Shown: piece by piece, positions 11,515 through 47,558 of the stretch | Position numbering within the stretch: the stretch's first letter is position 1 | How the letters are laid out: every line of letters begins with the position of its first letter | Origin: Vicugna vicugna | Taxonomy: Eukaryota | Assembly: GCA_013265495.1 (NCBI GenBank) | Contig: MU057560.1 | Coordinates: 1,624,753 to 1,688,752, forward strand | Direction: 5' to 3' | Length of the DNA stretch: 64,000 bases | Program-made: the position numbers and the translations under genes | Notes under the pieces: generated by a model | What the model saw: only the letters and a program-made list of their open reading frames with translations | The model's database searches: none | What the model was told of the DNA's origin: nothing

Positions 11515-12040
11515 TTTCAAGAGAAAGAATGAGGAAAACAACCCTGAAAAAATAACTAATGAAACAGAGATAAATATCCCATTATTTGTATATTCATATA
11601 CACGCCACAGAATACTACTCAGCCAGGAAAAAGAACATTTTGCCATTTGCAACAACATAGAAGGACCTGGAGGGCATTATGCTTAGGGAAATGAGTTAGG
11701 CAGACAAGTACACTGTATGTTATCATTTAAATGTAGAATCTAAAAAAAAAACCCACCAGCAACAAATGAATGAATATAACAAAACAGACTCACAGAGAAC
11801 ACACCAGCGGTTACCAGTGGGGAGAGGGAAGGGGGGAGGGGCATGACGGGGGCGAAGATTAAGGGGTACACGTTACTAAGCAAAAAATAAACTACAAAGA
11901 TATATTGTACAGCACAAGGAATATCACCAATATTTTATAATAATTTCAAGTTAAGTAAAAATATTGCATACAAAAGTCTGTTTTCCACCTGAAACTAAGA
12001 AGATATGATAAATCAACGGTACTTCAATAAAAGTAAATAC
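11515..12040 (+). mobile_element. L1 fragments: short ORF1-region piece joined to an L1 3' end
   Basis: L1 3' text gaatactactcagcc...ttttgccatttgcaacaacat...gacctggagggcattatgct...acagactcacagaga...atattgtacagcacaaggaata..., ending at AATAAA 12026-12031. The 11515-11578 piece resembles an L1 ORF1 start region (less certain). Confidence 0.85.
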
Positions 12041-12480
12041 AAAGTGCGGCCTGCAGACGTTGCTGAGGAGGCCGCAGCGGCAGGGAAACAAGGCAGGAGG
12101 CGTGAAGGCTGGCTGGGCCTGCTCGCGGCCCTCGGCGACGCACGGCCGGAGCCTCAGCGCCGAGCTTCCCCACGGCCGCGCACAGCGACGCTCGCGGTCA
12201 AGCAGGACGCCCCCAGCGCCGTAACGCGAGAAGACGCCGCGTCCGCGAGAAGCGCGGCTCTTCCGGGTCTTCACTGAGGGGGCTTCTCTTCCGAGCCGCT
12301 GCGCGGGGACACTCGGCGGACTCGCCCGGGCCGCCGCCAGCCCGCAGGGCCGGGTCCTCCGGCGGGCGGACCCGCGCTGCCGCAGCTCGGGGGCTGGGGC
12401 GGGGTGGGGGGTGCGCGGACCGTGGTTCCCGAGCCATCTGGAGCAGAAGCGCCACAGAAGCGAGGGCTCCGCCCTCCTCC
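12040..12480. promoter_or_regulatory. CpG island with housekeeping-promoter-like motifs
   Basis: Abrupt switch from AT-rich L1 to very CpG-dense DNA. Contains two CGCGAGAA motifs (~12226, ~12245), an ETS-type CTTCCGG (~12260), a GC box, and a four-G-run G4 motif GGGGGCTGGGGCGGGGTGGGGGG (~12389-12411). Confidence 0.65.
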
Positions 12481-12920
12481 CCAAGCAGCAGGAACTCCAT
12501 TATGCTTCGCTCAGCTTTCACGATTTGAAGTCTCGAGAGCCTCAGGACCGGGAGGCCACCAGCAACACCGAGTACTCAGAGATCAAAATCAACAAATGAG
12601 GATTCGCCCAGAGCTCGGTCCTGGCTGGAGGAATCACAGCCTCTGCGGGGGAAAGGAGAAGTCAGGGGCTAGTTGACGAAACCTTTGTGGCAATATTAGC
12701 ATTAACTACTGTGGGAGTGTCCCCAGGTAGAGCAGAAAGAAGACAGGTGATAGGATTAGAGAGACCTGGGCTCAAAGGCAGGTTCCAACACTTCCTAAGG
12801 CATTGTGATCAGGCAATTCACTTCATCTCCCTGTGTCTCAGTTTTCCGTTCTGTAAATCAGAGATTATGTGTCCTACCTCAAAGTTGGGTGAGCATTAAA
12901 GAAATGAACGTGTGAAAATC
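12480..12920 (+). pseudogene. SIGLEC5: Orphan fragment of a CD33-related Siglec (SIGLEC5-like) terminal exon: ITIM-bearing cytoplasmic tail plus 3' UTR
   Basis: 12480-12599 translates to PKQQELHYASLSFHDLKSREPQDREATSNTEYSEIKINK*. This has the ITIM LHYASL (12495-12512) and ITIM-like TEYSEI (12567-12584) in the spacing of CD33-related Siglec tails; human Siglec-5 is recalled as ...QKELHYASLSFSEMKSREPKDQEAPSTTEYSEIKTSK. TGA is at 12597-12599, followed by a MIR-containing 3' UTR and ATTAAA at 12895-12900. There is no in-frame ATG and no Ig or TM exon in the window. Family assignment is strong; the exact paralog is less certain. Confidence 0.88.
12750..12915 (+). mobile_element. MIR SINE relic inside the Siglec-like 3' UTR
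   Basis: MIR core-like text: tgtgatcaggcaattcacttcatctccctgtgtctcagttttccgttctgtaaat...cctacctcaaagttgggtgagcattaaa. Confidence 0.75.
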
Positions 12921-13027
12921 AAGCAGCAGAGGTCCTGTTAGCTGGTCTGTGCCCAGTGCCTGCTGGTTTCTTTTCCTGGAACAGAAAGATCTTCCTGGCA
13001 AGTTCTCCTGAGGCTGGGAGTGATTAG

Positions 13028-13142
13028 TGTTGACCTGAAACAAGTAGCCTGCCAGGTATTTCCACAGCAAAGATGAGTTTATTCAAGGTCAGCCGAGAAT
13101 TGCAATTAGGGGTCTGCAACCGTGACGAGCCTTGTGCAAGTA
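13028..13142 (-). mobile_element. ERV LTR 3' end (R/U5), truncated at the VNTR
   Basis: The minus strand reads ...AATAAActcatctttgctgtggaaatacctggcaggctacttgtttcaggtcaaCA, a poly(A) signal about 50 bp before a terminal CA, as in ERV1-type LTRs. Subfamily not assigned. Confidence 0.6.
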
Positions 13143-13587
13143 GCCCACGGGAGGCGCTCAGGACCTGCCCACGGGAGGCGCTCAGGACCCGCCCACGGGA
13201 GGCACCCAGGACCCCGCCCATGAGAGGTGCTCAGGACCCGCCCACGGGAGGCGCTCAGGACCCGCCCACGGGAGGCGCTCAGGACCCCGCCCACGGGAGG
13301 CGCCCAGGACCCCGCCCACGGGAGGCGCCCAGGACCCGCCCACGGGAGGCGCCCAGGACCCGCCCACGGGAGGCGCCCAGGACCCGCCCACGGGAGGCGC
13401 ACCACGGGAGGCGCTCAGGACCCGCCCACGGGAGGTGTTCAGGACCTGCCCACGGGAGGCGCCCAGGACCCGCCCACGGGAGGCGCTCAGGGCCCGCCCA
13501 CGGGAGGCGCCCAGGACCCCGCCCACGGGAGGTGTTCAGGACCTGCCCACGGGAGGCACTCAGGACCCGCCCACGGGAGGTGCTCAG
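13143..13587. repeat. GC-rich minisatellite (VNTR), 24-25 bp unit, about 19 copies
   Basis: Head-to-tail unit GCCCACGGGAGGCGCTCAGGACCC with variants (GCGCCC, GTGTTC, extra C), one internally truncated unit at ~13386-13401, and a partial last unit. Confidence 0.97.
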
Positions 13588-16500
13588 TGAGCGTTTCCAA
13601 GCTGAGGAAGGCTTCCGGGAAGCCTCTGCTCTCCCTGGGTCTGCGGCGCGCTCGGCCACAGGCAGCCAGCAGGCCAGCGTGTGCCCACCGGGTCAAGTCC
13701 TTTCAGCCCGCGGACCCGGCGTGTGGCGTGTTGGGGGCGGGGGCGGGGGCACAGCCACGGAGACGGGCCCCCAGCTGGAGGACGGCGTCTGCCTGAGGCC
13801 TGGCGACTGGTAAATGTATTAGGGACGCAGTTTAAACCCGAATGAGCCAAGCTCTCGGCCCGTCCCTCCATCGCCCTTCACTGGTGGGTGATTTCTTCCC
13901 CTTTCCCAGCTAAGGACGTGTGTTTGGGGGAAGAAAAGACGTGCTTGGTCCGGGGCGGAGCTGAGCCTCAGGCCTTCCGGGGCCTGGTCCTGCTGAGAGT
14001 CGTGGGGGCCACAGCCAGGGCCAGCGTGGCTGGAAGCAGGGCAGGGTCGCGTTCAGGACAGGCTCAGAGGGCCAGGCCGTGGAGCCCCCCTACCAACAAC
14101 GCTGACAACTGGGGGGGTCAGCAGTGGCCCTGGCACGTGGCTGGCTGGTGAGCCCGGCAGGGAGCCCAGTGAGAGGCAGGCGCCCGGGGCTCCGGGGAGG
14201 AACGGGGCACTTTGGCCTCTGACAGGTGCTCCCAGTCCCAGCTTTCTGTGCCCATCTTAAGTGAATTCCCTCTCCCTATCCTGCTGTTTAAAAAGGTCCT
14301 ACGATTTTCAATTCAACGCAGTCGACTGCTCTATGTCTAGACATCTTGCACTGTCCCTTTGTCTTTCTTCTCATGAAGGAGTCATCAGCGCTGAGCTCTC
14401 AGCTTCAGCAACCATTACACAGTCATTTAATTCAACTAAGTCTACACAGAGAAGGGACAAGGTGCAGAGTGACTTGTTAAATCTCAGCTTGGGAGCCAGA
14501 AGTCAAGGGGAGTGTTCAACTGACGGGCTCATCCCGGGACACCTGCAGCCTTGGAGGGACACAGTGGTCACTCCTGAGCTGCCGTGTGGCTCCACTAACG
14601 GCCCTGAGTGGATCCCCTCTGTTCACTCTCTCCCCAGACATTTCTGCCATCGAGGGACCTTCTTAATCAAGGAGTTCGCTACCAGGAAGAGCCATGGGCA
14701 GTCCCGGACACCAGATGGCCCAATCATCCTGGAGGATTTCAGAAATACTGTCATTTCTGGGAAAACGATACAATTTCCAAATGTCCCCTGATAGACTCTG
14801 TCTCTGGCTTTGCGATTCCCAAGAGCTCAATTACCTCTTTATGCTAAGACAGCACCAGTTGGGCTGATTTTAAAGAGCAGGTTTTAGATAAAATATAGCC
14901 TTTTACAGATCACTATGTTTTGCTTTCTTAAAAGAAGATAAAATTTCAAACCAATTACCTGTTTCAGAACACCTTTAAAGGAAAAAAAAAAGATTGCTTA
15001 TGGCAAACTCCGTCGACAACATTTTTCTTTAGCAGAAGATCATTTCCAGTCACCTGGATTGCACAGGCACGTGTGAAGGCTGGGGCATGAAGTGGAGAAA
15101 TCAACCTGCAATTATTGTGAGATGTTCACAAACTGCCCAGTAGTCATGAAGCCAGAAATAAATCTAAAAATGTGCAAATTGGAGCCTCTATCTAAGCTCT
15201 GGATATCAGAAACTGAGCTATTAAAACACTGCTGTTCTGCCACACAAAATAGAGAGGTGAAAGGACAAACCCTGACACCATCACATGACAGCAGGCAGCA
15301 CCTGAAAAGTGCCAGCTAGAGCTTGCTGGCGCTCAGGAAGAAAGGTAACTGGTGACAGTCTGCCTGAGTGTGGCTTTCCCTGGAAGCAGCACATCCAAGT
15401 CCTGTGGAGTCTGTATGTTATGCAAAGTCGTTTTCAGACGTCCCACCGCTCAAGCCGCTCCTCTTCCTCTCTCCTCCTTGTGACCTTTTGTGCCTGTGAC
15501 TACAGCCAAATGAAGAAAATCTACTTGTCTAGTGGCTAGAGTTTAATCCTAATTAAAGTCAGATGAAAGGAAACGCAACCCCTGGAGGACACACAGTGTG
15601 CAGGAGCCGTCTCTCTAGTTATCTGGTCACTGGGAATTCAGGCTCACCAGCTTCACCCTGACGTGGGGACGCCAGCCAGCACCTGGCCACCATCAGTGCA
15701 CCTGGGAGCTCTTCCAACCCTGCTGCCTGATTCCTTTTCAAGACCTCTGAACACTCATGCTTAGAAATTGTGGGTAGGATTCCAAGGAGGGCGGATGTCT
15801 GGGGAAAGAAGGTCTGCAAATACGAAGAGCTGGGAGAAGGCTGACCCTCCACTGCCCATCATACAGCGTGTCAGCCAAGTCTAGGAGCCATCCCAGCGCT
15901 CTGAGACCGTGTCCCTCCAGCTTAGCATGGACCGTCAGCATCCTTCCACGCCTCCCACTGAGCTTCTCGCCTTTCATTCAGCCAGCGAGGTGGCCCAGGA
16001 CTTTGAAGATTATCAAAATGCCTCTTGGAGTGTGTTTTAAAGAAAATGCTTAAAATACGAGGTTTCTATGGATTGCAGAGATAAAACAGACACGGGAGGC
16101 CTATTTTCATGCATTTCAAAATAAGATACTTTATGATTTCATGAGAACCTGAAAATTTTAATCCACAGCTAGATCAGAAAGTTGCAGGAATTTCCACAAT
16201 ATTCTGCAGGAACGTTCGGCAAATATTTATGACCTCTTTCTTTTAAGATGAACTGGACATATGCCCATGGGTGGAGCAGGCCTTACAAAGCCGGGCTTCT
16301 AGACTGTCGAACCTCACATCCACACACGTAGCTGATAAAGAGACCAGGAACCCACGTGGACCCTGTGAGCTTCCTGTTCACACTGGATCCCCAGGGTTCC
16401 CAGGCCCTCCTGGAGCGATGCAGCAGTGGTCCAGGGAGGCGCTGTCACAGCTGAGGAATACTGCGATTAGAAGACCCTCATCCTTGGGGGGCTGCTGGCA

Positions 16501-25901: not shown

Positions 25902-28094
25902 TTAGGTTTCAATTCTGAGAGCTCAGAATGAAAATTTGAAGGAGAGGAATTTTTTTCTCTCTTTTTGCGAAGTTTAACACGGTTGGTCCACTTACGTGCG
26001 TGCCTGACCCCAAAGCTACAAAGCAAACAGAGTCTGCAAAACTCCGGATTTGGCCGCGTTGGAGGGACCGTGGAGGATCCGCAGTTACAAACACGCACTG
26101 CGTTGCAGGAGCAGAGTCCTCTCTCCTGTGTGGGCTACTGCTGTTGCCACCAGGACTGGTGCTCATTGTGCTCGGAGGGCAGTCTTACCTGCCCTATTGC
26201 TCTCACTTTACACAAGAGGTCACTGCAGCTCAGAACAGCCGCCAGCCTGGCCTCAGGCCACACAGTAATGGTGAGTGACAAGCTGGCACTCAGACCTGAG
26301 GCTCTATTAGTAAAACACCCTGTGCTGGATTTCAAGTAAGTGACAATTTTAAAAAAATGTGGTTTGTGCTCTTCTGCCACTGAAACACTTGAAATATTTC
26401 CAGTGTGGCTGCTGCTTCCAGCAAAAGCATTCGTCTCACGGCCCTGAAACCAGCAAAGCCGCGTGGCCGAGCTATAAGGAGCCCTGACGGCGGGGAGCCA
26501 GGCATCCCCCTGAGCCCTGTGTTCTAGACATTTGCAAACAGCTTTGTTAAGAGGGTGCAGGACCCGGGGTACAACTCGGTTCTCACAGCAGAGGCGCACT
26601 TTCAGGCATGAACCTAAAGGATGCCACTCCGCCCATCTTCCCGAAGCACAGGTGTCCTGCGGGCTTCAGGCCGAGGCACCGGGGGAGGTGGTGGTCAGCC
26701 CTCGGGGGGCACATCTGTGAAACGGGTTCCTCGGAGGTGCTGGACTGCCCGGGAGGCGGGCGGCCCTCGGTTTCAACAGCCACGCTTTGGAAATGAGTGA
26801 CTCTGGGGCGAGCGCGCGCCTCTGCAAGCTGAGGCACAGGTGGGTGTGACTCACAGGGAAACACGGGCTTCTCTAAATGATGGGCACAGCGCCGGGGACT
26901 GGGAGTGGCCCCAACGAGCAGCGTGAGTCTGCCTCTGACCCGCACCGGCTCGGCTCGGCATTTCAGGCTGACCCTGTCGGTCTTGCTCAAGGGCCACGCC
27001 TCCTCCCTCATTTTCTCCCTCTCACTTAGCATTTGCCCGAGTTTGGGCTCCCGTCATGGTTTCCTGGTGGTAGGAAAGGTGTCCAGCTGTCCTCAAGGCC
27101 AGCCTTTAAGACCAAAGGAAGAGCCCCCATCAGATCGGCACACACCTGGCGCCGAGCCCAGGGCAGGGCCTCCGTGGACACCCGTCACGTGAGGAAATTG
27201 GGACGCGCCACGAATCCAATGAGCTTTTTTGGAGAATGTTTTGAGATTTATGTATAAGGCGCAGGAAAGGTGTACTTCAGCTCTGTCTGAGAATAAAGTG
27301 CTGAATGCTCACGTGACTGGAATCCTAAGAATATGCTTGAACCACCTCACCATTTTATAATCTAAGGACCTGACGGTATCTTCTTCAAAGGCCACCCCCA
27401 GTGTCTCCATCTGCTGTCGGAACTCAGGCGAGCTGGACGCAAGCTGGAAGCTTGGGGAGGAGAAGGAGGTGAGCACCGGGTGGGGGAGCAGAGCCCGGCC
27501 GGCTCCCGAGACAGAGGTGCCCGCTCGGCACCGCACTCCTCGCCGGGGAAGTCTTCGGAAGGTGCAGTGGAGTCTCCCCCGGCGTGGGGTACTGCACCAC
27601 TTACAGCAACCACACGGATAGCGTCTGCGTCGTTAGCACCTCGTCATTTCGCAGTTGCTCCCAGTGATGACAGCTACGACCTAGACAAGACAGTGTGTGA
27701 AGAAGGCCCACGTTTGGGTCAGGGTCAGGGTCAGCCCTAAGGCTCCAGAAAAGGAGTAAAAGGGTTTTCATTGGTCATGAAATCTCCCCCAAATATCTTC
27801 ACTTCAACGAAAGTGAATAAATGAGACGCTCGGTTGAGTCTTATTTCTCTCTAGTCAAGCCTTCTTCTCTGGCGGGTGTTGAAATCCTCTTCCCGAGCAA
27901 ACCTCTCAAGAAGGCCCCTGCCTCTCCAAGGAAAGGCTGGAAGGGGGCTCGGATCGCCTATCTGGGGCCACGGGAAGGTGAGTCACCTGCATTAGAGTCA
28001 ACCCACAATAAACGGGTTCAGTCCTGAGGACTTCTGTGTTGGCGGGGGGCTCATGGGAAATAATCTATTAATTTTAAAAGGCAGAAGGACTGAG

Positions 28095-30860: not shown

Positions 30861-32487
30861 CATTGCTTCTCAGAAGATTATTAGTGAAGTATCTGGAGAC
30901 ACCATTAGACTGCGTTTTGTCCTACCAGCCAGGCATCCGAGTGATGGGACTGTTACAGGCTCTAGGCAGCATTTCATAAGCCTGAAGTCATGCACGGAAG
31001 AATAATTTCAAGCAGTGGTAACAACTGGAGATGAGTATGGTGTTTAATCATTTGCCCCTTAAAGAAAGCTCTTCCTGCCTGGTGTTTGCCTTAAGCACTT
31101 TTTGGTCCTACATGATGAGACAGGACAGCATCCAGTGATAATCTGCTGATTATGGAGAACTGTAAGCTTGATACATTGGGAATCTTCACCAGTTACGCTG
31201 ATAGCCAAGATTATTATAATAATCTTCAGAGGGAGAGAGTAATTTTCACCAGCAAACAGCCAGGCGCTGGAACAACACTTGCACATGTGTAAATCCACCG
31301 CACACAGCTTTGCTGACACCGTTAGAACAGTGGCTTAAGTAAGAGCCAGTTTTTTTAAGAGTGGATCATAAGCTTAAAACAAAAATGCTATCGCAAAAGC
31401 AGTTTAGGCTTGAAGCCACAGAAAGTATTTCCTCCCGCAAACCATACAGGAAAGCGTTTGAGAAAGTAACTGATCCGCCCGATAAAGAATGGAAGGCAGA
31501 GTCGGCCCAACTTAACTGCTCCGGTAATTAGCCATCCCTTTCCGGCAGGGGCGGACTCCTCTCCACATGCTGATAATTATTCCTCTTGTCATACCAGTTA
31601 CAAAGATGTGTTTCTCTGCTTCTAAGCTAATTATGAGAATTGAGTTCTGAATTTCCAAGTTACCTAATTCTTCAGTGATCTGTGATCATTTTCGAACTTT
31701 CTCAAACAGCAGGTATTTTTCAATCCCACCTAATTTTAGCCGGCATTTAATTATGTGCAAAGACTAATCCTTTTTCAGGGTTGGTCTTGAGCGCGACTTT
31801 TTCTTTTTGACGACCCCCCTGAGTGGCACTTCTCAGGAGTCCTGCTGTGCTCTTGAAGGGTCTTGGTGATGTTAACGGCAATTCTGTGACAAGACCCCAA
31901 AAGGAAAATCTCTTCCTATAAGGAGAAAAAAATATATATAGTGTACACTGATGGGAAATGACTACATAAATTATTACAGAAGACGCTTCTATAATGATAG
32001 ACCCAGAGAAGCTACAAAGGCTCCAAATGTTAGGAACACTAGCAATAAGTCTTTAAGTGGGACACTTCAAAAAATATATAATCTTAATTTTGCTACCAGA
32101 TTCCAGCCCATAAATAAATTGGAACATGCCTATATTTATCTTGTTTGTCTTCAAATAATTCATCAATGTATTTCTTTATTTTATTTTATTTTTATATTTC
32201 TTTATTTTATTCAGGAGCTTATGAACATCTCTGACAACTCTTAGGGCAGTAACACTTCTTTCTGTAGGGGCCTCATGTCTCTAGTCGTGGCTTTAATGAT
32301 TTAAGCCACTTCTTACAATCTAGATTATTCATCTTTTCCCTAAGACCCAACCTACCAACTAACCTAGTCATTTTTTAACTCTTCCCTTAAGAATCAAATA
32401 GAATGTACATGACTTAGAGATAAAGATGATGTTTCACTCAGCTTTATCCTCTCTTGTGCCAAATGCAATGCCTTAAAAATCATAGGT

Positions 32488-32567
32488 GCTTCAGCATCTT
32501 TTACAGCAGCCAAGACATGGAACAACCTGAATGCCCACTGACAGATGGCTGCATAAAGAGGCTGTGG

Positions 32568-32625
<58 letters not shown>

Positions 32626-33075
32626 TACTACTCAGCCATAAAAAAGAAGAAAATCATGCCATTTTGCAGCAACGTGAATGGACCTGGCAATTATCATACT
32701 AAGTTAAGTAAGTTAGAGAAAGAAAAATATCACATGACATCACTTATATGTGAAATCTTAAAAAATGACACAAATGAACTTATTTACAAAGCAGAGACAG
32801 ACTCACAGACATAGAAAACAAATTTATAGTTACTGGGGAGAAGGAGGTGGAGAGGGATAAATTGGGAATTCAGGAATTGCAGATACAAACTACTACATAT
32901 AAAATAGATAAACAACAAGTTTCTACTGTACAGCACAGGGAACTCTATTCAATACCTTGTAATAACCTACAAGGGAAAGAATATGAAAAGAAATATATAT
33001 AGATGTATGTATGACTGAATCACTATGCTGCACACCAGAAGCTAACACACCATTGTAAACGGACTATACTCCAAA
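32488..33075 (+). mobile_element. L1 3' end containing a (CA)n microsatellite
   Basis: acagcagccaagacatggaacaacctgaatgcccac...tactactcagccataaaaaag...acagactcacagacatagaaaac...cagcacagggaactctattcaatacc. Confidence 0.93.
32575..32623. repeat. Perfect (AC)n microsatellite, about 24 units
   Basis: Uninterrupted acacac... run. Confidence 0.97.
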
Positions 33076-43779: not shown

Positions 43780-44730
43780 ATAGATGTGGGCTGAGCCTCG
43801 GGCGAGGCTGCGGCCAGGAGGCTGGAGGAGGAGCTGCTGCAGAGGGAGCCTGTGCTCGGGACTGAGCGCAGGGAGACGGCAGGCGGGCGCAGGGGCGGGA
43901 GGCGGCCGGGCGGGACGCCTGCTGCCCACCGGCCGCGGGACTGTGTCTTCGCTGCATGACAGGGGGTCGCAGCTTCGCCCTGAAGCAACACGGCTGTTTT
44001 CTCACCGCTTCAGAAGGTCAGAGGTCCAGGTCCGAGCGAGCGGCAGAGCTGAGCTCTCCGCGGGGCCTACCAGGCGGTGACCATTTTACAAGAAAAAGGA
44101 AGCACCGTCTGTGTTTGCCTGCTCAGGCGGGAGGCAGAGAGGGCCGCCCACCAGGGGGCCTGAGGAGTGGGCCTGAGACAGGCGTCGTCCCCCTCCCCAG
44201 CCTCGTCCTCACTCCAGCCCTGCGGCCTCCACCCCCACGCAGCCAGCGCCAGCGACACACCGTTGATCGTGCAGCTCCTCCGTGGTGCCGGGAAAGCGTC
44301 AGCATCCCTGCAGACGGCCGCCGCCGCTCAGGACCCCTTCCCGGCTCAGCCCCAGCCTCCCCTCAGAGGGCAGCCTCCTGTGCCCCACGTCCAGCGGCCC
44401 CCGCCGCCTCCCGCCTGCACCGCGGCCCCCACCGCCTGCTGCTGCCGTGACCGCTGCCACGTCTGGTCTCCAGGCGGCCCCGGGGACCAGCCTCCAAACC
44501 TGAGCTGCGCCACACTCTCCCGGGCTCGCCGGCTTCCCTCCTGCAGCCGTGCAGGCCTTTCTGCTCCCAGACTGAGGACCCAGCGCTCGCCGATGCCCCC
44601 ACCCCGATCTCCACCAGGACCACAGGCACCCCCCCTCGGGTCTGTGCTCACAAGGCAGCTTCCTGACGGGGGTCTGACCAGACACCCCCTTTGACAACTG
44701 CCGCAATCCCCGCACCCGGCTCCGCTTTCC
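43780..44730. promoter_or_regulatory. CpG island / probable alternative promoter of the minus-strand host gene
   Basis: About 950 bp of CpG-dense, non-repeat DNA with GC boxes (GGGGCGGG ~43892). Minus-strand donor CACATCTAT|GTGAGG at 43780/43779, and a second donor ACTGA|GTAAGT at 44758/44757. Confidence 0.65.
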
Positions 44731-47558
44731 ACCCACAACCTTAGAAAGCATACTTACTCAGTATACGTATATCCACTGTTTACGGTCCTCTCCTTCCCGT
44801 CCCCTTTCTCCAGAAAACACAGATTTGGGGAAGGCGGGAGGGAGCTGTCTCTGCTTCCCCGGTGAATCCCAGGTGCCCCGGACTGCGTCAGGCCTGCAGC
44901 CGGCACACAGTAAGTGTTTGTTGAGTAAGTCAGGGAAAGTGCTTTGCGTGAATGAACCCGTTTGGGTCTCAAAGGAGCCTAGTGAATTAGGTGCTGGCAG
45001 AGTGCACATTTCACAGTGCAAGTAACAGACACACCAACCTAGACACGTTTAGTGTGTCCCCACCAGGAGCACACGGCTACGGAGAGACGACGCAGGAATT
45101 CGGAACCGAGCCCTGGACCCCAGCGCTCAGAAGGACTTCCCGCACGGACAGGCTCTCTGAGGCCTTGTCAATGGCGCAGAAGCTCACAGCAGGCCGGGAT
45201 GCAGGCGCCCTCCTTTCTAACTTCAGTGACGCACACGTAGCAAAGCATCAGGCTCTTGGTACCAGTCAGCACTCACTGAACCAAGCCGGTGAGCCAGCCC
45301 GTGGGACGGACACAGAAGCTGGCCATGGAGCGGTGCCAGCCAGCCGCCGCCCTGCCCTGTGAGACAGCCAGCCACGCGCCTCCTTCACACGTTAGCAGGT
45401 TCACAGCCAGCCAGACAACTGGCCAGACGCAGAGGGACTGAGATCACAGCAGCACAGGAAACCTGGTTATGGCTTTAAAAAAGAAATAAGAGAACTATCA
45501 CGATGGACCTAATAAATGAGCCAAAACACATAGCACCGTGCTGTTGAATGGAACATAAACAAGCAAAAAAGACAGTTCTCCTCTTTCTGAATTACCCTGG
45601 TTGTGTCCTGTGTAAACATAGAAGTGCTCACAGCAATTTAATTGGAAGACGGTGAGGCACCGGGGTCACATCCTTCCGCGGATCCCACGGCACAGATAGG
45701 AAACACGAAACACGCTCAAGCTGGAGGCACTTTCCAGAGCTCCCTGGGAACATGCATGTTGTTCCTGTTAAAAAGAGGAAGTTTTGTTATTACCCAAATA
45801 AAGTTAATTTATGGAAAACAGATGAAGTATCCGGTGTGGGTTTGTAAAGCTCGTATTTAATCAGGGCATTCTAAGTTCAGGTGTGTGCAACTCAAGCCAT
45901 TGCAAAGACATCGTTCACTTTCCCGCAGGTGATAGTACGGCCAATTGTTACGCACAAACATTAAGCCATCCTTTAACAAGGAATTGTGAAACATTAATAT
46001 TTACTAATTTCAACATTTCATCTCTTTAAAGCGAGAAAAGGGGGGTTGCATAAACTCCCAAACGCTTCCAGCAATAAAAGCATTCCAAGCTCACCAACAA
46101 GAGCATGCGGCTAGAAATCGCTCTCTCAAGCTCTTTTGCCAACCAGACAAAACAGCTCCTGCCTGACACACAGGGCTGGTGATCTTCAGAGACCCTGGGT
46201 GACCCTTCTTCTCCTCCAGTAAAGCCAGCTGGAATCCAGCAGTGATCCTGGAGCCACACACCAGAGTCCCTGGAAGTTCTCAGCGCTCTGACTTCTGGAC
46301 CCCACGTTCCCAGCTTTCTCAAGCATCCAGGTACCTTCGAAGCATCAAAAATTGTCACACGCTCCACATAATAATGCCTACATTACCAGCATCTATTGAT
46401 TGAGAAAATAAATGATGGCAAATACTTGTTAAGAATCAAGTACTAAATTTGCATGGTTTTATGGTTTTTAATCACAATAATAACCATGTACATTAAAAAA
46501 AATTAAAAGGCAGCATTGCAAGACTGTGTTCCTCCTATAGGCAGCGTCTACTGCACAAGCAGATCCCTCAGGTTCCCACAGGGGCTCACTGCTCACCAAC
46601 ACCCCACCCAGAGAAACCCCAAGTCTGTGGGGGGACTCGCATCGCAGGAAGGAAATTGGAGACTGGAGAACCTCGGGACGTCAGGAGACCTTCTTACCCT
46701 CACGTCTGTCAGCATTTTCTAGCAGCATCTCCACTGTACGAACAGGGCTAAATGTCTCCTGTATCTGGGAAGCAAACTGCAGATACATCTACACCAGCAG
46801 AATTTCTTTGTCCCCTTTGTGGACACGCCTGAGCCAAAAGGAAGGATTAACAGTGAGCGGTCTGGCCGCGTTGGAAGGCTCACAGGAGACCTTCAGTCAC
46901 CGCGGGCACTAGGTTCTCCCACACAGAGAAGAGCGGTCTCCCATCGGCGTTCTTCCCCTCAAGCCCGTTACTTGTAGGAAAGGGGACAAGTGAGGCGCAG
47001 GGGCCACTGAGGCCTTATTTCCTCATGACCTCACGAAAGGTCAAGGGAGCTGGTGGCGATCAGTAGCAGGCCTTTCTTAGGTTAAAAAAAAAGACTCTTA
47101 GAAATAAAGTGTAGGGGGGAAAATATTTTAAACATTTAATTCTATAGTAAAATGTAAAAAAACAAGCTATTTTCCAGGGATTCCCTGAACTGCATTTCCT
47201 CATGAGAGGCAACTCTGGGTAGTGACCACCGTGACGGTCATTATGGATCTAAAACCACAGCTGTGAACTCAGTGTCTTCATCAGTCACCACCCAGAGCTA
47301 TTCCTGAGCTTAGGGCATACATGCCGGTATCAGAAAAGAGGAGGGAAAAACAGAAAAACATTGCAGGCTTCCTAAGGCAGCTTCACTCGAAAGACCGTAA
47401 CTAAGATAGTTCGATGTTGATTTGTGGGTAGAAAAACTGTTGATCTTGGCTATGTGAGTTTTTGCCGTGAAACTAAAGACAACATAAGCGTATCAAACAG
47501 AAACAGGTAACATATGATTCCACAAAATTTGTCTAGTAAACTTTTACACTATCCATAC

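Follow-up and report, generated by a model that had tools for sequence, protein, structure and literature searches.

The window, the whole 64,000-nucleotide stretch of Vicugna vicugna DNA that was analysed (G000:C391:1624753-1688752), comes from an assembly of 2.03 Gb in 12,405 pieces and holds zero N. Within the window, a CpG island of about 1.1 kb is interrupted by a block that appears by composition as a foreign body within it: the GC content of the block is 0.49 and its CpG observed/expected ratio 0.36, and both flanks differ from it. The block fits exactly between the CpG island on its left and a minisatellite, whose first unit follows on its right. The features of this region, in positions of the window, are the following.

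12045-12483, no strand: left flank, unique CpG-island-like DNA of 439 bp, GC 0.75, CpG observed/expected 0.98
12484-13141, plus strand: copied block of 658 bp, corresponding to G000:C9192:579772-580429, the 3' part of a SIGLEC5-like last exon with 3' UTR/flank
12486-12599, plus strand: coding remnant of 37 codons and a stop, with the ITIM LHYASL and the ITIM-like TEYSEI
12767-12907, plus strand: old interspersed repeat in the block, recognised by its local alignment with another copy, in the parent intron
13020-13100, no strand: short multi-copy repeat in the block; 37 of 40 among the matches listed cover only this part
13142, no strand: possible filler base (A), part of neither the parent nor the array
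13143-13587, no strand: minisatellite of about 18 units of 24 bp, GC 0.78, 445 bp (TRF: period 24, 85-93% matches; family D1)
13588-13811, no strand: right flank, GC-rich and unique, GC 0.72

To the left of the island, at about 11590-12045, lies an interspersed repeat with matches elsewhere at 72-76%. Apart from this left repeat, the flanks were found nowhere else in the assembly, which contained no empty-site allele or haplotig of the locus. The minisatellite is resolved into variant units. As a side observation, it has no second locus in the genome, none of the three plus-strand frames is closed by a stop within it, and its minus-strand translation matched Pfam Prion_octapep at 26.6 bits, below the cut-off of 32; we took this match for a low-complexity artefact.

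Base-by-base comparison demonstrated that the block and its parent sequence on the scaffold C9192 are identical at 658 of 658 bases, with 0 mismatches, which is far beyond chance. A genome search likewise gave window 12484-13100 an identical second place at C9192:579772-580388. Mismatches set in immediately at 12483 and at 13142, and the borders are sharp on both sides. Searching the genome for the parent led to a complete plus-strand SIGLEC5-like gene, within which C9192:579772-580429 is the counterpart of the block, and which has signal, V-set, three C2-set, TM and two cytoplasmic exons.

C9192, about 566.9 kb, plus strand: signal exon
C9192, up to 567333, plus strand: V-set exon
C9192:567525-567824, 568749-569000 and 569089-569376, plus strand: C2-set exons
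C9192, about 569.6 kb, plus strand: TM exon
C9192:570530-570640, plus strand: short cytoplasmic exon, with a 9-kb intron after it
C9192:579693/4 to the stop at 579885-579887, plus strand: last exon, preceded by ...TTTGCTCAG

The closest public proteins are Siglec-5 of Camelus dromedarius, C. bactrianus and Vicugna pacos, with 98% identity across the last exon, and the third and fourth Ig exons of the parent are 100% and 99% identical, respectively, to the V. pacos protein. The parent is evidently the SIGLEC5 orthologue, inside the Siglec cluster. When the Siglec-5 protein (P0005) was searched genome-wide, 40 of the 45 matches fell on C9192, at 554-780 kb and at 1.514-1.519 Mb; on C391, the matches were the tail itself and one weak Ig-like match 1.44 Mb away (E 7.7e-4). 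An earlier reading made from the letters of the window (the sequence-only reading) had proposed that an inhibitory-signalling module was copied out of the Siglec cluster into a foreign locus. As assembled, the 658/658 match bears out a copy from C9192 to C391, and the flanks of the block do not map to the Siglec cluster.

The coding part of the block lies at the end of an open plus-strand frame at 12225-12599, which has 124 codons, follows a stop at 12222-12224, ends ...LLPKQQELHYASLSFHDLKSREPQDREATSNTEYSEIKINK and is closed by a TGA at 12597-12599; the tail before this stop reads ...QQELHYASLSFHDLKSREPQDREATSNTEYSEIKINK. An in-frame ATG is absent from the upstream stop to 12596. The ITIM consensus is I/V/L/S-x-Y-x-x-L/V. 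LHYASL occupies 12495-12512 and TEYSEI 12567-12584, both on the plus strand, and the block thus carries the cytoplasmic ITIM and the membrane-distal ITIM-like motif of CD33-related Siglecs. The 39-codon tail at 12480-12596 that the sequence-only reading had pointed out, with both motifs, the stop and an ATTAAA, was located in all these elements. Siglec-derived are 37 of the 39 codons, together with two bases of the preceding codon, and codons 1 and 2 (P and K) are flank and junction sequence. The 37 remnant residues are identical to the camelid Siglec-5 C-terminus; like the SIGLEC5 cytoplasmic tail, the block presents a true C-terminus with an ITIM and an ITIM-like motif, whereas its locus, unlike the SIGLEC5 gene, lacks signal peptide, V-set, C2-set and TM exons. 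Siglec-5 is described in PMC4042635 as inhibiting via the cytosolic ITIM, which recruits SHP-1/SHP-2.

Beyond the stop, the block holds 542 bases of 3' UTR/flank. The repeat at 12767-12907, which we take to be a MIR, gave an alignment score of 68, compared with 26.4 +/- 5.0 (maximum 44) in 300 shuffles. The only AATAAA/ATTAAA of the block, the ATTAAA at 12895-12900, may simply be repeat sequence because it falls within this interspersed-repeat alignment. Among the matches listed in the genome search, copies of the element at 13020-13100 were found on many scaffolds at 83-90% identity. This element, about 75-80 bp long, with dozens of copies and occurring in the SIGLEC5 3' flank too, is a young, high-copy repeat.

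The anatomy of the copy does not follow the exon. Identity begins at C9192:579772, which is 78 bases (26 codons) inside the parent last exon, and the copy consequently lacks the parental acceptor (...TTTGCTCAG|GG) as well as the first 26 codons of that exon. A complete exon, in the sense of a whole exon with the parental acceptor, is not what was copied; the description of the block as an exon module has to be given up in this respect, since the copy starts within the last exon, without an acceptor, and extends into the 3' flank. The apparent acceptor at 12485/12486, a pyrimidine run followed by AAG|CAG, is a product of the junction itself. At the left junction, block and flank have at most one base in common. 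The right junction lacks any overlap, and one untemplated base stands between block and array. A 6-base match between the parent flank and the repeat unit, CCCACG, was not counted as evidence on the right junction, since its register is off by 1-2 bases and it may be due to chance. The last bases of the block, ...CCTTGTGCAAGT, are followed by the minisatellite, with no A-tract, and the block continues 241 bases beyond its only ATTAAA. The 3' end of the block has no poly(A) signal followed 10-30 nt later by a poly(A) tract. No direct repeat of at least 5 bp brackets the block, as judged from a direct-repeat search and the junction sequences, and a target-site duplication is thus absent. A 10-base repeat, CAAGCAGCAG, present at 12482 and 12920 (D9), was judged to be chance; we estimate that about two such pairs are expected per 2 kb.

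The window flanks bear no hidden homology to the flanks of the parent sequence, their best local score being 18 against 15.9 +/- 2.2 in shuffles; blastn of window against parent flanks gave no match below E 0.16. On this ground, the block is not a conversion tract within a diverged paralogue. Beyond the block, comparison of the window with C9192:530-640 kb yielded only one repeat match of 74%. Segmental duplications are conventionally required to span 1 kb or more with no less than 90% identity, and the block, at 658 bp, is below this length.

Other Siglec parts were searched for throughout the window. No Ig family of Pfam was found in any of the 271 stop-to-stop ORFs of at least 70 aa, nor among those of 48-69 aa, of which 300 out of 365, lying up to 53.7 kb, were scanned. 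In tblastn with eight Siglec-5 proteins against the window, the tail alone was matched (E 9e-19 to 2e-11), and all non-tail matches in the window had E of at least 0.29; nothing in the window matched Siglec-5 residues 1-480, the part that includes signal peptide and TM. The genome-wide search placed the V-set and C2-set Ig exons, missing at this locus, on C9192. The sequence-only reading had reported no signal, V-set, C2-set or TM exon in the 12 kb upstream of the tail; by Pfam and tblastn this holds for all 64 kb, and upstream Siglec Ig or TM exons to which the tail might be spliced were likewise not found in the window.

The sequence-only reading had set the tail in an intron of an unrelated gene and antisense to it; such a host gene is putative, and none was recognised by the means applied. 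Pfam revealed no host-gene coding exon in the 271 ORFs of at least 70 aa and the 300 of 365 ORFs of 48-69 aa, and the three sub-threshold matches in window ORFs (Prion_octapep, DUF7773 and EIAV_Rev) are chance matches. None of the ORF translations was recognisable when inspected by eye, and Rfam gave 0 matches on the window. CpG-rich islands were also observed elsewhere in the window, at 43800-45000 and 26000-28000 (GC 0.65 with 65 CpG in 44001-45000; GC 0.55-0.58 in 26001-28000). Pfam recognised no coding exon in either; promoters or first exons without coding sequence are possible. A (CA/TG)n microsatellite at 32550-32620 gives a run of HT/TH codons in the ORFs 32430-32699 and 32557-32811.

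Independent traces of the junctions were sought in proteins and sequence collections. In the protein database, none of 72 near-length candidates gave a score, and no junction-spanning model was found; 19 longer protein matches were all of Siglec type (16 Siglec-5, 1 Siglec-11 and 2 unnamed), with the tail alone aligned. A 35-mer across the left junction had 0 matches in metagenome contigs, in a search of almost no power. Among the 24 sequencing runs listed, 14 (guessed to be DNA or with no kind stated, from five studies and organisms A, B and C) contain 0.69-0.80 of 238 words sampled from window 11900-14300, and the RNA or RNA-guessed runs X15-X20 contain 0.06-0.19 of them, shares that are uninformative on junctions, expression and presence in other species.

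As the best explanation of these data, we suggest, at about an even chance, that the block is a real, inert and very recent class 2 templated insertion, a patch left by the repair of a double-strand break. A CpG island beside a GC-rich tandem array is a plausible break site. On C391, a break would have occurred at the border of the CpG island and the GC-rich minisatellite; 658 bp would have been copied into the break from the 3' end of the SIGLEC5 orthologue, with the DNA itself or a read-through transcript as template, and the patch would have been sealed by end joining. Since the block passes its only ATTAAA by 241 bases, an RNA and a DNA template are both possible. It would be an accident of the template's extent that the patch includes the final 37 codons and, in them, the two tyrosine motifs; the patch, having no start codon, membrane anchor or parental acceptor, would not be an inhibitory receptor module and would probably lack function. 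Zero changes in 658 bases imply that the copy is either very young or not real. For the same reason the intact frame, which the sequence-only reading had taken to suggest retention or recent copying, is uninformative on selection, and the missing ATG gives retention no help. In sum, the observation made in that reading is confirmed, and its interpretation is partly supported.

The presence of the junctions in the animal is something we infer from the assembled sequence, and an assembly artefact is the rival that weighs most. In that case, which we hold to be quite possible at rather less than even chances, the animal would have the C9192 copy only, and a 658-bp SIGLEC5 3' piece would have been misplaced into a gap at the border of CpG island and minisatellite. 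Complete identity is also expected of a misplaced assembly piece, and the site lies exactly at the edge of a 445-bp array of 78% GC, beside DNA of 75% GC. Edges of GC-rich tandem repeats are hard to sequence, contigs tend to end there, and scaffolders or gap closers may insert wrong pieces. The genome is a scaffold-level draft in 12,405 pieces; the size of the block probably corresponds to about one long Sanger/454-type read or a small contig; and the protein models and metagenome contigs, the latter with low power, offer no independent trace of a junction. Yet both junctions lie within about 660 bp of one otherwise unique locus, which a simple A-B chimera would not yield, and neither side of the block carries an N, in a window that is N-free; the 110 kb of C9192 examined hold just one 30-N run. 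A join by k-mer assembler overlap is unlikely because the left junction has at most one common base, and with no more than one base common at the junctions, overlap joining leaves the arrangement unexplained. Moreover, the left end falls in a single-copy exon, where a contig end would be unexpected unless there were two real copies, and the resolved variant units of the minisatellite suggest that reads spanned the region. False duplications and misplaced contigs of draft vertebrate assemblies resemble the block in their perfect identity to a second place and in sites at GC-rich tandem repeats, but they are usually separate small scaffolds, haplotigs or local tandem copies by gaps, whereas the block is N-free between two unique flanks. 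If the block is an artefact, it is a misassembly able to seed a false "SIGLEC5-like" annotation.

Biological rivals to the repair patch fare less well. That the ITIM module is retained, or available, as a working exon, with a host transcript spliced to the chance acceptor at 12485/12486 and gaining an ITIM/ITIM-like C-terminus and terminator, has in our estimate a slim chance. The junction does make a pyrimidine-rich run and an AG directly before in-frame codons, in or beside a CpG island that is a possible promoter, and the open frame has 124 codons; this frame, however, is without an ATG, upstream of it no coding exon of any type was recognised, the junction is absent from annotated proteins, and zero divergence leaves selection without evidence. 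We know of no way for an ITIM to act without a membrane-anchored receptor. Slimmer still is the chance that, in a real insertion, this acceptor allows a transcript that begins in the CpG island, or in an exon further upstream, to terminate with the ITIM/ITIM-like tail of SIGLEC5; if true, a repair patch would here have given rise to a new terminal exon with an ITIM, seen at zero divergence. An L1-mediated retrocopy of SIGLEC5 mRNA, whether a processed pseudogene truncated at the 5' end or a class 1 templated insertion, appears even more improbable. It would account for a block that is the 3' end only of a transcription unit, as in 5'-truncated retrocopies, and that contains an ATTAAA, but is contradicted by the junction sequences: poly(A) tract and target-site duplication are both absent, the target is GC-rich, unlike the TTTT/A type, and the block overruns its sole poly(A) signal by 241 bases. 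Siglec clusters shed pseudogenes, and by tblastn only the tail is recognisable in the window, as might be expected if an old Siglec gene had decayed where it stood and left its last exon as a relic. Such slow decay is incompatible with 658/658 identity to a gene on another scaffold, with unrelated flanks, and with the rest of C391, which is without Siglec exons; identity, flank comparison and scaffold-wide search together contradict the relic, whose probability we regard as negligible.

The repair patch that we favor has known counterparts. In their account of the two classes of templated insertions (TSI/TSIP), Onozawa and Aplan (PMC5110952) describe class 2 as double-strand-break patches from a distant, usually transcribed region, with no TSD, no poly(A) and signs of end joining, and class 1 as marked by a TSD, an A-tail, a TTTT/A target and a signal 10-30 nt before the end. 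Measured against that account, the block resembles class 2 in being a sub-kilobase piece whose template is a distant transcribed locus (C9192 to C391), in lacking a TSD, a poly(A) tail and a near-end poly(A) signal, and perhaps in its junctions, with at most one common base and one extra base. It shares with 5'-truncated processed pseudogenes and class 1 insertions, which are mediated by L1 ORF2, the 3' end of a gene standing alone at an unlinked site, but shows none of the four class 1 marks given in the same account. Class 2 insertions, as reported there, were proven by PCR and population data, whereas the junctions of the block are putative. If real, it would be a clean, datable non-primate case of templated double-strand-break repair with zero substitutions, and would illustrate how gene fragments with intact signalling motifs are scattered. 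Either way, the data offer evidence neither for a new inhibitory receptor nor for a shuffled exon with a function.

Some further observations concern the Siglec cluster itself. The parent and a Siglec gene about 13 kb upstream have a 1.24-kb block in common at 96.9% identity (C9192:553971-555206 and 566723-567955), which spans the signal, V-set and first C2-set exons with the introns between them; further downstream, the likeness of the two genes is only about 75%. A TM-like ORF of the upstream gene contains an arginine. The two genes of this camelid resemble an inhibitory/activating pair of the Siglec-5/Siglec-14 type whose 5' parts have undergone gene conversion; a pair of this type with such conversion is described for primates in PMC4042635. 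Across C9192:554000-780000 and 1514000-1519500, Siglec-like Ig exons form at least seven gene-sized groups, and several of these exons have in-frame stops, for example those at C9192:633422-633712, 630048-630263 and 764578-764739. A second ITIM-type tail exon lies on the minus strand at C9192:1514697-1514831, and its DNA is 77% identical to the block.
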